From a virus, in the IMG/VR virus record IMGVR_UViG_3300007539_000013, positions 1 to 64,000 of that record: DNA of 64,000 nt. One strand, given 5' to 3'. The notes beneath the pieces were generated by a model, which saw nothing but the letters and a program-made list of their open reading frames with translations, was not told the origin of the DNA and did not search any database. The stretch's first letter is position 1, and every line of letters starts with the position of its first letter. Positions 3,222 to 54,918 of this stretch are shown here, piece after piece. The position numbers and the translations under genes were made by a program.

Positions 3222-3439
3222 AACCAAAGCCAGCAACCAAAGAGGAGATCGAGAACCTGTTCGTTAAGCAAATGTACAAGGATAGACCGAGGGAAACCCA
3301 CACAGATAATTACACAATGGATTGCCCTGCGTGCAATGCTCCCGCTGAAGGTGAAGGCGTGTTCTTCTCCGACTCAGGTGAGTTAATTAAGAATAACTTT
3401 GTGCAATGCACGAAGTGTGACTGGCACCAAGCATCATGA
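3218..3439 (+). CDS. small zinc-ribbon protein
   Basis: CPAC...CTKC pair; GGGAGG RBS. Confidence 0.65.
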   Translation: MKPKPATKEEIENLFVKQMYKDRPRETHTDNYTMDCPACNAPAEGEGVFFSDSGELIKNNFVQCTKCDWHQAS

Positions 3440-4284
3440 AGGAATACTTCGTTGGAACAGATGACTTCCAGCGAGCCCACAAAGTGAATGCCATGATCTC
3501 GGCAAACGCTTTGGTACGGATCAACAATGGAGTCTTGCAAGTACGCAAGGCTCCGATCCGTGTGGGTCGTTGGATGATGGACTCGGGAGCATTCTCCCAA
3601 GTCACAAAGTACGGGGACTTTATTATGTCGCCCGAAGAATATGTACGCATTGCCGTACGCTTTCAGGACTGCGGTGATCTTGCTTGCATCGTAACACAAG
3701 ACTATATGTGTGAGCCTGATGTCATAAGGATGCTAAGGAACAAAGGTAAGGAAGCATCAGTGAGGATACATCAACGCAAAAGCGTGGAAAGGTATAAGCA
3801 GATTGTAATAGAAGCCGAGCGACAAGGCCTTAAGGTTCCAGTCATGCCTGTACTTCAAGGATGGGAAGTCGAGGACTACATTGAGCATTGGCACAGGTTA
3901 TGTGCGGTCAACCGACAGTTAGGTAGGAAGGGTAAAACTGTTGAGGCTTTTGGTTGGAATCATAACCAACCACGATGGGTAGGAATTGGATCCACCTGTA
4001 AGCGTAACAAGAACCCAGAGGTGGTAAGTCAAATACTTGACACCTTGCCATGGGAGTTCATCAATAGCCACGATGTGCGAATACACCTGTTTGGGTACAA
4101 GACCACCGGTCTCAAGTCCGACAAGATCAAAGATCGTATCTACTCAGCAGACTCATTCGCATACGACTTCACCAACAGACTCAATGGTGTGGTGCGTAAG
4201 CGTACAGACAGAATTAAATCAGCAAAAGAATTCGGAAACAAAATCGTACATAACAATGTACAGACCACACTTGCTTTAGCATAA
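3436..4284 (+). CDS. TGT-fold / DpdA-like 7-deazaguanine transglycosylase (candidate DNA-modifying enzyme)
   Basis: MDSGAFS, QDYMCEP, PVLQGW, VGIGSTCKR, HLFGYK and SADS motifs typical of the TGT/DpdA-like family. Confidence 0.75.
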   Translation: MKEYFVGTDDFQRAHKVNAMISANALVRINNGVLQVRKAPIRVGRWMMDSGAFSQVTKYGDFIMSPEEYVRIAVRFQDCGDLACIVTQDYMCEPDVIRMLRNKGKEASVRIHQRKSVERYKQIVIEAERQGLKVPVMPVLQGWEVEDYIEHWHRLCAVNRQLGRKGKTVEAFGWNHNQPRWVGIGSTCKRNKNPEVVSQILDTLPWEFINSHDVRIHLFGYKTTGLKSDKIKDRIYSADSFAYDFTNRLNGVVRKRTDRIKSAKEFGNKIVHNNVQTTLALA

Positions 4285-4285
4285 A

Positions 4286-4309
4286 AGTTACACGATATTT
4301 ATTGTATCA
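4286..4309 (+). promoter_or_regulatory. TGTWACA-N10-TGTWACA element, copy 3
   Basis: AGTTACA CGATATTTAT TGTATCA directly upstream of the structured element. Confidence 0.6.
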
Positions 4310-4311
4310 TA

Positions 4312-4485
4312 TTCATTCACATAGGGTTCATTGAGACTCGCTTTCTTAACCTTTAGTAGAAGGGTGTATGGCTTTTCACTTTGGGCATGCACCTGAAGGT
4401 GTCTTCGGACACAGCGAGAAGGGATAATGCGAGTACGGGCAGCAAATCCGTATGATGACCAAAAACCTGCCCTATTGTGAAATGA
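4312..4485 (+). ncRNA. putative structured ncRNA / cis-element of unknown class
   Basis: Closing stem TTCACATAGGG 4316-4326 / CCCTAT-t-GTGAA 4470-4481; ACTCGC/GCGAGT; GTGTC-TTCG-GACAC hairpin; ACCTTT/AAGGGT and TACGGG/TCCGTA hairpins. Confidence 0.6.
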
Positions 4486-4497
4486 TTTGACACATAG

Positions 4498-4521
4498 TGT
4501 TACACTTTAGTAGGTGTAACA
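4498..4521. promoter_or_regulatory. TGTWACA-N10-TGTWACA element, copy 4 (perfect 8-bp inverted repeat, 8-bp spacer)
   Basis: TGTTACAC-TTTAGTAG-GTGTAACA, 1 nt before the recombinase start codon. Confidence 0.8.
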
Positions 4522-4522
4522 T

Positions 4523-5578
4523 GTGAAAATTTATAAAGAAAAGACAGGGATATACTATGTATCCTTCATGTCTGCCGGTGGAAAGCGGAAAAGAAAGTCG
4601 CTTGAAACTAAAAATTTAAGCACAGCTAAACAGTTGTGCAAGGATGCAAAAATACAAGAGCTTGAGATGGCAGCCCGTGCGGGTGCGTTGCAACGAGAGG
4701 CAATTTCCATGATCGTTGCAGATAGGAAGATCAAGCTATCCGAGTTAATTATTGAGTGGAAAAGATACAAGTCTGACTTAGCTCAATCAGGTAATACAAT
4801 TTATACACAAGAATCATTGATTCGTGCGTTTATAGACTTTGCGGGGGTCGCTCATCTTCATGGGGTAACCAAGGAGATGGTGGCGAATTACATCAACCAG
4901 AGCGGAGATACAAAGGCAGGGAGTCGCGAACAGCGACACTCTGCCTTGCGTTCTTTGTATCAGTTTGCAATCGCTAAGGGTTACACTATCACAAACCCCA
5001 CCAAGCTAGTTGCAGTCGATAAAGGTAAGCTAACTCACAAGCAAAAGGAGAAGGTACCAAGGAAGCCTTTTACCAAGGAGGAGTACAATCAGATTATTGC
5101 ACAAGGTGATCATTTCTTTATGGAGGCAACGGCATTAGCTTGGTGGACAGGTATGAGGCTTTCTGACATTGCAAGACTTGAGTGGGACTCTGTTGATTTT
5201 GAAAGTAAGACTTTAATTGTGCATACCAAAAAAACGGATGCTCGTATTTGCATACCACTTACTCATCCACTTGTTGGACGAGGTGCAGTTCTGCGGATGC
5301 TTGAGAAGTTATCTAAAGAAAAGACGAGCGAAACCTATGTGTTTCCTGAGCAAATGATGATCGATAAAGACCCAACAAAGCGAGCAAAACTATCCGTATA
5401 TTACGGAAGGATGCTCGGGCGAATCGGGATTAGTGGCAAATCTTTTCACTGCCTTCGTCACTCATTTGTTTCAAGATGTCGCGAAGCAGGAAAGACTTTG
5501 GAGCAGATTGCGGTTTGGGTTGGACATTCCTCTGAGAGCACGACGCAGCTATACGATCACCAAGGCTCCAGGATCTAA
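4523..5578 (+). CDS. tyrosine recombinase A (integrase/XerC-like)
   Basis: TGMRLSD (R), HTKKT (K), FHCLRH (HxxR), VGHS...QLY (H, Y) all present; N-terminal arm-binding-like beta region. Confidence 0.92.
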   Translation: MKIYKEKTGIYYVSFMSAGGKRKRKSLETKNLSTAKQLCKDAKIQELEMAARAGALQREAISMIVADRKIKLSELIIEWKRYKSDLAQSGNTIYTQESLIRAFIDFAGVAHLHGVTKEMVANYINQSGDTKAGSREQRHSALRSLYQFAIAKGYTITNPTKLVAVDKGKLTHKQKEKVPRKPFTKEEYNQIIAQGDHFFMEATALAWWTGMRLSDIARLEWDSVDFESKTLIVHTKKTDARICIPLTHPLVGRGAVLRMLEKLSKEKTSETYVFPEQMMIDKDPTKRAKLSVYYGRMLGRIGISGKSFHCLRHSFVSRCREAGKTLEQIAVWVGHSSESTTQLYDHQGSRI

Positions 5579-5690: not shown

Positions 5691-5874
5691 CACCCAAATC
5701 AATCTCAGACTCGAATTCAACTTCCTCCTCCTCGTAGTATTCGTCTATCGCCTCGCTTACGCACTCAAGTATTTCATTGGAATCAAGGTCGGATTCTTCT
5801 TCCCACCTATGAAATAGAGCCTTGACCTCATGGGTGCATTTTCTTTTTGCATCCTCCTCTTCGTCTACGCTCAT
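5680..5874 (-). CDS. hypothetical acidic protein
   Basis: ATGA-coupled to HNH gene. Confidence 0.7.
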   Translation of the reverse strand: MSVDEEEDAKRKCTHEVKALFHRWEEESDLDSNEILECVSEAIDEYYEEEEVEFESEIDLGDEE

Positions 5875-6116
5875 CTTGTCTTATGCCTATTCTTGCTCCT
5901 GTTTTTCCTTACCGAGGAGCAGGTCAAATTTGATCTGCTATTATTTCTTGGATTGCCATCCTTGTGATGCACATCCTTACCCTTAGGGCATTTGATCTTA
6001 CGCCTAGCCTTATTTCGGTTAGACCTATTTTTTATTTGCTCGGGCTTACTGTTGTATTTGCGTTGGTATACGCTCCTCTTTTTTGCACCCGGTTTTCTGT
6101 ATCCCTTCTCAGGCAT
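5871..6116 (-). CDS. small basic HNH-motif protein
   Basis: DVHHKDGNPRNNSRSNL. Confidence 0.75.
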   Translation of the reverse strand: MPEKGYRKPGAKKRSVYQRKYNSKPEQIKNRSNRNKARRKIKCPKGKDVHHKDGNPRNNSRSNLTCSSVRKNRSKNRHKTR

Positions 6117-50508: not shown

Positions 50509-50566
50509 TGTAACCTAATTTATATTGTAACACCCTACAAGCTGTAACTTAGGATTTATTGTAACT
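50509..50566. promoter_or_regulatory. four TGTAAC(A/C/T) boxes phased at 17 bp (element locus 10)
   Basis: Boxes start at 50509, 50526, 50543 and 50560. Confidence 0.8.
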
Positions 50567-53406: not shown

Positions 53407-54411
53407 CTATTGGATACTAAAGTATTGATCGGCCATTTCCTTATCTACCCTGTTGTTTTTATAGTTCTTAAGAAAAGTCTCGGAAGACATATGGCCCATG
53501 GTATCTAATGCCCACTCAAATGATTTCCAGTAGCCATAACTACCAAATGAGTGCCTGGCACCATTAGCTGGGTAATTAAACCCTACCCTACGGGACGCCC
53601 ACCTTCGCGCCAAGTTAAGTGCGTTGTAGGACGGCATAACTAAACCTTTAGACTTTGGTACCCAAGACCACAAATTCTCGGGTGGCTTGATCCATCGCTC
53701 CCTCCCCGTCTTAGTATGCTCAGCCTTTAGTCCTATAGATTTGCCCCATCGGATGTCTGAATATTTCAAGGTTGCCATTTCCACCTCGGGTCTAATTCCC
53801 GTGAATAACATAATCGCTAGTCCAGGTTTATACTTTTCGTCTATTTCATCTAAAAGTGCCTTAGCTTCATCAACCTGTAAAATACCGGGCAACTTAAAAA
53901 AAACTTTTTTTGTGTTCATTTTTAGGTCTGGATTAGTTTGCATATACCAATCTGATGCATTTTGCCCGTAACCCTTTTTCGCACACCATGCCATGAAGAT
54001 ACGAACAGCCCGTCCATATTCTTTTTTAGTTTTCTCCGACCAGTCCCCTGAGTTCACATACTTCTTGTACGACTCCACGGTTACATCTGATACTAACCTA
54101 CCTCCACCAAACCATGTTAGGAATTTATTAACCCGCTCCTCTGTTGTGCGATAGCCTTTTTGTTTTGGTTTGGCTGGATTATAATTATTCTCAAAGTACT
54201 CCGTCAAATACTCGCTGCTTGCTACATTGAGTAATGTCTGATCTCCAACAGGTTCTTTTTTAGCGACCTCACCTAGCCAACTAACCACATCAAACGCTTT
54301 GGCTTCCATGGCTGAATTAAAATACTTTCTTCTTCGCTTCCCGTCCCTATGAACTGAAAGTATCCACTTTTGTTTTCCTCTAACCTCTCCTTTATAAATA
54401 TTGATGTTCAT
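53407..54411 (-). CDS. int: phage integrase B (tyrosine recombinase)
   Basis: TGIRP, HTKT, NGARHSF, MGH...KNY; adjacent to tRNA-derived attP. Confidence 0.92.
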   Translation of the reverse strand: MNINIYKGEVRGKQKWILSVHRDGKRRRKYFNSAMEAKAFDVVSWLGEVAKKEPVGDQTLLNVASSEYLTEYFENNYNPAKPKQKGYRTTEERVNKFLTWFGGGRLVSDVTVESYKKYVNSGDWSEKTKKEYGRAVRIFMAWCAKKGYGQNASDWYMQTNPDLKMNTKKVFFKLPGILQVDEAKALLDEIDEKYKPGLAIMLFTGIRPEVEMATLKYSDIRWGKSIGLKAEHTKTGRERWIKPPENLWSWVPKSKGLVMPSYNALNLARRWASRRVGFNYPANGARHSFGSYGYWKSFEWALDTMGHMSSETFLKNYKNNRVDKEMADQYFSIQ

Positions 54412-54539: not shown

Positions 54540-54590
54540 TGGCACACCCGGCAGGAGTCGAACCTGCAACCTCCTGATCCGTAGTCAGGG
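54540..54590 (-). mobile_element. attP core: 3' part of tRNA-Arg(ACG)
   Basis: Minus strand CCTGACT-ACG-GATCAGG AGGTT GCAGG TTCGACT CCTGC CGGGTGTG CCA; no D-arm or 5' acceptor strand. Confidence 0.88.
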
Positions 54591-54600
54591 CATGATCCTC

Positions 54601-54918
54601 TTATTTACTGGGACTTGGGCTGGTGTTGCCAATTTGTTGCCAGATTAACTGTATGGATTCCATTATTTCTTCGTCATGGAAATAAACCCATGTAGCCATG
54701 CCGACATTACAGATCAGGGAGATCACCAAAATTACGCCAAGGCATAAGACCAATGTCTTAATACTTTGAGCAATCCCTTCCACCTTTAATGCAAGGTCGT
54801 GAACATCATTTAACCGAGTGCCATCCACTCTTATTTCGCCAATCTCACCATCCAGATCAGTAGACCACTCTTGGGTGTCGTGAAGAATTGTTATGTTCTG
54901 GGTGGAGGGGTTGTCCAT
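54601..54918 (-). CDS. single-pass membrane protein in lysogeny module
   Basis: LVLCLGVILVISLICNVGMATWVYF. Confidence 0.6.
   Translation of the reverse strand: MDNPSTQNITILHDTQEWSTDLDGEIGEIRVDGTRLNDVHDLALKVEGIAQSIKTLVLCLGVILVISLICNVGMATWVYFHDEEIMESIQLIWQQIGNTSPSPSK
54624..54642 (+). repeat. arm-type site pair TGTTGCCA x2
   Basis: 54624-54631 and 54635-54642, on the other side of the att core. Confidence 0.6.

Follow-up and report, generated by a model that had tools for sequence, protein, structure and literature searches.

What is a folded RNA doing directly in front of a phage recombinase gene? The question is raised by a locus in virus record IMGVR_UViG_3300007539_000013 (79,741 bp), whose first 64 kb, hereafter the window, was analyzed as a single stretch of DNA. 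At this locus a 238-nt gap precedes the gene of a tyrosine recombinase (recombinase A). A preliminary description, made from the letters of the window, had seen there a structured RNA bracketed by two copies of a motif, and had explained it as a recombinase-associated RNA, a conformational switch controlling the recombinase, or an excisable or invertible mini-cassette. The RNA is real, conserved and absent from the catalogued families, and it constitutes a new family. We propose, with a probability of roughly 0.5, that it is a portable, independently folding phage RNA that may act in trans or at least independently of the gene beside it.

RNA folding of positions 4286-4522 on the plus strand gave -71.4 kcal/mol compared with -55.2 ± 4.2 kcal/mol for 200 dinucleotide shuffles (z -3.83), none of which folded as well, and the comparison with shuffles suggested in the preliminary description was therefore passed. 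The minus strand of the same segment gave a z of only -2.30. The stronger plus-strand fold, together with invariant G-U pairs and changes from GC to GU, identifies the plus strand as the folding strand, as had been expected. In addition, the strand of the RNA is the coding strand in every member of the family with a known neighbouring open reading frame (ORF). The extent given by a covariance model, R1, corresponds to the sole copy in the 79.7-kb genome, and the parts of the RNA are as follows.

4303-4492, plus strand: structured RNA, full extent by covariance model R1 (183.5 bits, E-value 5e-38)
4307-4327, plus strand: 5' strand of the closing stem P1, pairing with 4469-4490 in the minimum-energy folds
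4328-4336, plus strand: junction J1/2 (UUC...GA, counting U4327), with the UUC start and the GA end in 14 of 15 members
4337-4418, plus strand: P2 arm, in which the helix of CUCGCU (4337-4342) with AGCGAG (4413-4418) encloses a 70-nt variable insert
4399-4412, plus strand: C(UUCG)G hairpin in the P2 insert, conserved and covarying in relatives
4419-4469, plus strand: nearly invariant core arm, AAGGGAUAAUGCGAG-P3-UGAUGACCAAAAACCUG, seen as invariant columns
4433-4439 with 4447-4453, plus strand: P3 hairpin, loop 4440-4446, 100% paired
4469-4490, plus strand: 3' strand of P1, from the minimum-energy folds and the pairing in the alignment

The RNA is a Y-shaped three-way junction of P1, P2 and an invariant third arm. 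The family figures given here rest on 15 sequences, and the covariation figures on a model-based alignment, the predecessor of an alignment of 14 sequences. In that alignment 92.4% of the cells pair, compared with 37-42% when the partners are slid, 17 of the 32 pairs are changed on both sides, and none of 500 shuffles reached any of the four measures. Covariation is present in every helix. The inner run of P1 takes 11 different sequences among the 15 members and is paired in 14 of them, with L238 (loci are numbered with the prefix L) as the variant. P2 has 5-8 contiguous pairs in 14 of the 15 members and 13 different helix sequences among those 14, such as CUCGCU/AGCGAG, CUUUCCU/AGGAAAG, CAUGUG/CACAUG, CAAUCC/GGAUUG and CAACC/GGUUG, standing directly 3' of the GA of J1/2 and directly 5' of an invariant AAGGG; in L238 a 4-bp hairpin replaces it. 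The insert enclosed by P2 is 13-72 nt long, and its long forms hold two or three hairpins, C(UUCG)G among them. Four pairs of P3 change on both sides (ACGG/CCGU, GUAG/CUAC, GCGG/CUGC, AAAG/CUUU and other forms), and GC becomes GU in two sequences.

Several elements of the earlier fold are thereby borne out: the closing stem, which is conserved and covarying in relatives over 4307-4327/4469-4490, the C(UUCG)G hairpin, and the hairpin at 4433-4453, placed before at 4434-4452. The pairing of CTCGCT with AGCGAG, which had been listed as an alternative, turned out to be the conserved and covarying helix P2. The supposed inner stem 4336-4341/4429-4434, on the other hand, is specific to the window, its 5' strand varying in relatives opposite an invariant GCGAGU. 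A small peptide encoded in the core was considered separately and rejected; the 17-codon ATG...TGA frame is interrupted by a stop in L001 in the alignment, and the conservation of the core is therefore not due to a peptide.

The 15 distinct sequences of the family come from marine and estuarine viral contigs. Homologues of recombinase A were collected from IMG/VR (38 loci), from a set with one genome per species (80 loci) and from JGI metagenomes (80 loci). Searches by nhmmer and then by R1 found the RNA directly upstream of the integrase gene in every locus with upstream sequence and at least 54% recombinase identity, namely the L001-type loci, L124, L125, L126, L127 and L041, the 97% twin. 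A conserved structure upstream of homologues, as the preliminary description had anticipated, is thus present for recombinase A homologues that are at least 54% identical. Pattern scans of IMG/VR and R1 searches of whole records added three further groups. The first comprises L201/L202, L206/L212, L207, L230 (the same as L232) and L231 (the same as L233), phage contigs of 37-77 kb; here 2.6-3.5 kb separate the RNA from a downstream recombinase gene whose product has about 37% identity to recombinase A. The second comprises small contigs with forms of about 125-140 nt (L209, L211, L215), and the third a 105-nt form (L238, identical to L241).

The family is rare and occurs in phage DNA. The core was found in only 14 contigs of all IMG/VR, from which scans the window's own record may have been left out. 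Three relaxed pattern scans of IMG/VR gave chance matches with the exception of L238/L241, their L232 and L233 being the already known L230 and L231, and a scan with a bare 16-mer also yielded chance matches. Beyond IMG/VR, the distribution covers 160 loci, 401 Verrucomicrobiota genomes and five genomes reached through loci of integrase homologues. The core pattern was not found in the 401 Verrucomicrobiota genomes, it occurred in the five genomes only in a phage contig, and R1 gave no match in four bacterial genomes with integrase homologues. The search of 50,697 cultured-phage records by blastn with the recombinase region, the core and the L238 locus gave no match, and a text search of papers for the core sequence returned unrelated papers only. 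At gathering score, Rfam 15 (4227 families) matched nothing in the whole window but the transfer RNA (tRNA) at 54543-54614, and at E-values up to 10 it gave only chance or terminator matches on 4100-4700, on the short form L215 and on L238. The earlier statement that the RNA fits no identifiable class therefore holds. A tRNA-like or transfer-messenger-RNA-like attachment site was rejected as well, ARAGORN reporting only the tRNA-Arg at 54540-54615.

About 40 bases of the RNA are invariant in the family. In the arm that hardly varies, the two most diverged members, L230 and L231, change U4428 and A4461 together to G and C, and A4427 and A4462 to U and G. These changes support a helix of G4429-C4460 and U4428-A4461, which 7 of 500 shuffles matched, and contradict the pairs C4430-G4457 and G4431-U4456 of the minimum-energy fold. 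With this helix, the arm runs from P3 through a bulge of G4454, A4455 and U4456 to G4457 and A4458, which face A4432 and G4431, and then to the second helix. The bulge varies at its second and third positions, and G4457.A4432 and A4458.G4431 pairs are possible next to C4460-G4429 and A4461-U4428. A kink-turn is marked by a regular helix, a 3-nt bulge, tandem sheared G.A pairs and a second helix. The sequence pattern of a kink-turn fits 14 of the 15 members; L231 has A for both G's. We infer that the third arm carries a kink-turn-like bulge.

The two motif copies beside the RNA might suggest a recombination-linked element, that is, a guide- or bridge-like RNA, the phage attachment site (attP) of recombinase A, or a mini-cassette that is excised or inverted. 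Both copies exist, and the recombinase next to them has PF00589 and PF02899 domains.

4287-4310, plus strand: 'site 1', a copy (GTTACACGATATTT...) of the motif GTWAC-N12-GTWAC, just 5' of the RNA
4499-4522, plus strand: 'site 2', GTTACAC-N8-GTGTAAC, the second motif copy, holding an AGGUG ribosome-binding site
4523-5578, plus strand: tyrosine recombinase A (PF00589, 6.5e-23; PF02899; phrog_1)
1419, 2108, 4287, 4499, 6238, 26312, 34393, 41041, 46214, 50510-50565, 60140 and 61331 in the window; 64757, 67049 and 72266 in the genome: motif copies

The segments 4287-4310 and 4499-4522 (24 nt each) are 71% alike, the stretch 4498-4521 forms an 8-8-8 palindrome, site 2 abuts the GTG start codon of the recombinase A gene, and AGTTACACGATATTTAT at site 1 is conserved in L001, L124, L126 and L127. 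As a special bracket, however, the two copies do not stand. The pattern GTTAC-N12-GTAAC with at most one mismatch occurs 18 times in the window, compared with 1.47 expected, and none of 100 shuffles reached 18; under a slightly looser pattern the genome has 19 copies. In most cases a start codon follows 0-17 nt downstream on the matching strand, and the copies carry the oriented core GTWACACGAAA. Three copies overlap at 50510-50565, and two others account for the 24-bp 'direct repeats' seen at 1418 and 2107. The arms need not be complementary, as GTAAC...GTAAC and GTTAC...GTTAC both occur, which suggests that the motif probably acts as DNA, a promoter or operator of the phage family, and not as an RNA hairpin.

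The motif is carried by L124, L126, L127, L203 and L204, with further copies elsewhere in the loci of relatives; no copy was found in the RNA-bearing loci L201, L206, L209 and L215. Site 2 stands before whatever ORF comes next after the RNA. In L126 this is a 66-amino-acid ORF (1814-2014), inserted between the RNA with its site 2 and the integrase gene, which demonstrates that additional genes are tolerated in the position behind the RNA. The bracket is the ordinary punctuation of the phage family, set before the RNA as before a gene, and not a pair of dedicated recombination sites. The excisable or invertible cassette is not supported on the same evidence, its flanks being the 19-copy gene-start motif, of which RNA-bearing phages outside the clade have no copy at the RNA.

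A guide-like function fares no better. In the window, the P2a loop contains the 9-nt CTTTAGTAG, which is identical to the spacer of site 2, a match with a shuffle frequency of about 0.005, but it is absent in five relatives of the same layout, in which the longest shared word is 4-7 nt and within the shuffle range. Tests of the longest shared word for guide-like loops in 12 members stayed at chance level except for this single 9-mer, and nowhere else in the genome is the RNA matched over 12 nt or more, its 11-mer matches, 10 against 7.6 expected, being at chance level. A bridge or guide RNA was rejected on the grounds that the loop-site match is not conserved and that the RNA and the recombinase do not obligately co-occur.

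The recombinase itself is catalytically intact, as had been claimed, with the full R-K-H-R-H-Y set (R212, K237, H309, R312, H335, Y344) invariant in 27 homologues. The position of the RNA relative to it and to the neighbouring genes differs among the phages, as the following gene orders show (E2 and ThiF, Prok-E2-like and ThiF-like genes; SNF2, SNF2 helicase gene).

Window: Prok-E2-like, ThiF-like, SNF2 helicase, about 3 kb of small ORFs, dpdA, RNA, integrase
L207: E2, RNA, ThiF, small ORF, SNF2, integrase
L206, L201, L233: RNA, 290-amino-acid protein, SNF2, integrase
L232: RNA, SNF2, integrase

The differing orders in L207, in L206/L201/L233 and in L232 demonstrate that the RNA changes slot within a conserved E2-ThiF-SNF2-integrase module, occupying three different slots in phages of 75-80 kb, at 0-3.5 kb from the integrase gene. 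L209, L211 and L215 have it in a T7-like early region, where two small ORFs separate it from a downstream gene for a T7-type RNA polymerase. The record of L241 is 194.5 kb long, is rated 100% complete and has no PF00589 match. A cyanophage origin of this record was considered and is not claimed, psbA (PF00124) not having been found. On the other side, of 20 further viral records with genes for recombinase A homologues, 18 gave no RNA match to R1, and 6 of these 18 are rated complete.

The occurrence of the RNA in a complete phage without the recombinase and in unrelated phages indicates a self-contained RNA and not a partner of the recombinase. The RNA is dispensable for the recombinase, its placement before recombinase A is read as gene order and not mechanism, and the mechanistic tie put forward in the preliminary description is not supported. 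A recombination-linked element could appeal to the position of the RNA directly upstream of the integrase gene throughout the clade of at least 54% identity and no more than 3.5 kb upstream in five further lineages, to the loop-spacer match in the window, and to the fact that recombinase A is still without an identified attP. It has to contend, in addition to the flanks and the unconserved loop, with the whole closed structure of the RNA in the phage, which is not a 3' fragment of a host gene, with its presence in a complete phage lacking a tyrosine recombinase and its absence from six complete phages that have one, and with a second integrase beside tRNA-Arg that already supplies the usual integration module. 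We consider it very improbable.

The position before ORFs also raises the question of a cis-acting leader, a riboswitch-like sensor whose arm and junction would bind a metabolite or protein and control the following ORF, here recombinase A. Such a leader would fit an RNA that is encoded on the coding strand in every case, that usually has a start codon 15-45 nt downstream and that shows the aptamer-like pattern of invariant junctions and freely covarying stems. In the window, the ribosome-binding site and the start codon lie within the stable hairpin 4499-4522. In L238/L241 a promoter-like site at 3868-3897, with 9 of 12 matches, stops 1 nt short of the RNA, and a hairpin of 16 bp with a U-run starts 2 nt after it, as in transcription-terminating riboswitches; the next ORF is about 170 nt off, and the fold of L238 including the terminator has a z of -4.2. 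However, this terminator is found in one lineage only. Neither a sigma-70-like site nor a terminator was found adjoining the RNA of the window. The genes downstream are unrelated among members (integrase, 66-amino-acid ORF, ThiF-like, 290-amino-acid protein, SNF2 helicase, 57-amino-acid ORF), P1, a long and stable stem of up to about 20 bp, does not overlap the ribosome-binding site, and no conserved anti-terminator pairing or pairing against the ribosome-binding site was found among the members. The family therefore has the conserved aptamer with covarying stems that a riboswitch should have, but not the conserved expression platform or the coherent downstream genes. We regard a leader as possible though rather unlikely.

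A related proposal, a conformational switch, relied on mutually exclusive pairings. One of them, 4336-4341/4429-4434, is the window-specific stem mentioned above. The other, GGGCAG with CUGCCC, can form its central four pairs (GGCA/UGCC) in all 14 aligned sequences, which also speaks for a leader, but it does so through near-invariant bases; the outer pairs are not formed in 2 and in 8 of the 14, and its sole two-sided change, in the T7-like members, also fits the partners in P1 and P3, leaving the pairing without covariation of its own. These pairings do not uphold the switch suggested earlier, which is at best a possibility.

An RNA-processing element has to be weighed as well, either a self-cleaving ribozyme or a nuclease entry site with P1 as an RNase III-type stem, which would cut polycistronic early transcripts. 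The RNA lies between cistrons in dense operons, without an adjoining promoter-like site found in the window, its roughly 40 invariant bases recall catalytic cores, and P1 amounts to about two helical turns in the window's clade. However, the short members have a P1 of only 6-11 bp, no Rfam ribozyme family matched, and the RNA of L238 ends a transcription unit, a place at which there would be little to gain from cleavage. Processing is accordingly judged improbable.

The portable RNA proposed at the outset is suggested by the changes of slot, the three types of phage, the promoter-like site and terminator of its own in one lineage, and the independence from the recombinase. P1 and P2 vary freely provided that their pairing is kept, and the fixed bases of the invariant arm, with its kink-turn-like bulge, A-rich internal loop and fixed 7-nt loop, would form the working surface. 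This arm may bind a conserved partner, which could be a small ligand or a protein of either the host or the phage. The RNA would be made within an early or accessory transcript and, in the window, be released from the recombinase messenger RNA or left at its 5' end. It would move between phages as a cassette.

A number of points weigh against this proposal. The discrete transcript is a prediction, and the binding partner is putative. The kink-turn relies on near-invariant bases and one covarying pair, and L231 alters both G's. In 13 of the 15 members the RNA is followed within about 15-45 nt by a same-strand start codon and by no terminator, an arrangement just as compatible with a cis-acting leader, and a promoter-like site and terminator belonging to the RNA occur in only one lineage (L238/L241). 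Furthermore, in 9 of the 9 lineages of known context that are 37-80-kb contigs or their relatives, a recombinase A homologue lies no more than 3.5 kb downstream, so that there may be a looser functional link.

The surroundings of the locus are as follows. The record is listed as linear, but 19 nt, ATCATCAGCAAGCATTAAG, are common to both its ends (1-19 of the window and 79723-79741 of the genome), and it is therefore a circularly closed assembly. A block of plus-strand genes runs from about 55.5 kb over the record ends to 5578, and the minus-strand block holds the structural genes (terminase, portal, tail proteins and a 4042-amino-acid protein). The locus of the RNA forms the far end of the plus-strand block, where a DpdA-like gene, the gap and the recombinase gene follow one another.

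3436-4284, plus strand: DpdA/TGT-like gene (PF23859 DpdA, E-value 3.4e-25; phrog_1279)

This gene is kept 5' of the RNA in L124, L126, L127 and L203; tblastn did not find it in L201, L206, L207, L232 and L233, and it was not found in L209, L211 and L215 either. It is context only, without a link to the RNA outside the window's clade.

Other features of the genome were recorded in passing. The module of Prok-E2_D-like, ThiF-like (E1-like) and SNF2 helicase genes spans 76192-79741 of the genome and continues into 2-496 of the window, the SNF2 helicase gene crossing the record ends. It is conserved with the recombinase across phage contigs of 37-80 kb (L203, L207; SNF2 also in L201, L206, L232 and L233). 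Just downstream of recombinase A, on the opposite strand, is a small HNH_3 endonuclease gene (5871-6116, minus strand, E-value 1.8e-9). A second tyrosine integrase (53407-54411, minus strand, phrog_1, E-value 2.9e-20) adjoins a complete tRNA-Arg(ACG) at 54540-54615 on the minus strand. The phage has two tyrosine recombinases, and the integrase with tRNA-Arg is the classical integration arrangement. Verrucomicrobiota genomes assembled from metagenomes hold distant integrase relatives. The L041/L218 locus (CALIKS010000021.1) is a 15-kb fragment of a near-identical phage, with a recombinase 97% identical and an RNA that also scores 183.5 bits. The fragment is binned in a metagenome-assembled genome labelled 'uncultured archaeon', and the same bin holds the recombinase homologue L044; its archaeal bin is probably a binning artefact and not evidence of a host.

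To our knowledge, few structured RNAs encoded by phages combine strong covariation with a near-invariant core, and each that has been solved is a sensor, a catalyst or a decoy. We tentatively suggest, with less than even confidence, that the present family represents a new class of phage RNA that binds a ligand or a protein (riboswitch, ribozyme or host-factor decoy). Its kink-turn arm would recognise a conserved cellular target, and as a mobile module it may have reached at least three unrelated types of phage by horizontal transfer. The RNA is small (105-190 nt), modular and common to three kinds of phage, which makes it tractable for in-vitro probing, for fishing of ligands or proteins and for structural work. 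The results also remove a tempting but wrong lead, an RNA-guided tyrosine recombinase, and identify a 19-copy gene-start motif that probably marks the promoters or operators of the phage family.

Among known systems, the bridge RNA of the IS110 family is a recombinase-adjacent RNA whose loops specify DNA sites. The RNA of the window similarly adjoins a recombinase gene and repeats 9 nt of a site spacer in one loop. However, the enzyme here is a tyrosine integrase and not a DEDD enzyme, the loop-site match is not conserved, and the RNA lacks complementarity to other sites of the genome and also exists without any recombinase. The put antiterminator RNAs of HK022 are phage cis-acting RNAs of early operons. 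They share with the present family a folded RNA in early or accessory operons, the effect of which need not depend on which genes lie downstream, and are not known to resemble it in sequence or structure. No downstream terminators that would need read-through were seen, in contrast to what antitermination would require, and the L238 copy itself ends in a terminator.

Riboswitch aptamers with a multi-helix junction and a kink-turn differ from the present RNA in that its downstream genes are incoherent, its P1 is long and stable and no conserved expression platform was found. They resemble it in the invariant junction bases, the variable stems and the possible kink-turn, in the position upstream of ORFs, and in the terminator directly 3' in one lineage. 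Comparative genomics of bacteria, phages and marine metagenomes has yielded orphan structured RNA motifs, for example the 224 candidates of Weinberg et al. (2017; PMC5737381), together with the phage-linked GOLLD and ROOL. Compared with these orphan motifs, the present RNA is much smaller than GOLLD or ROOL, lies outside the 4227 families of Rfam 15 and has its own three-way junction with an invariant 51-nt arm; like them, it combines covarying helices round conserved junctions with a rare occurrence in phage DNA.

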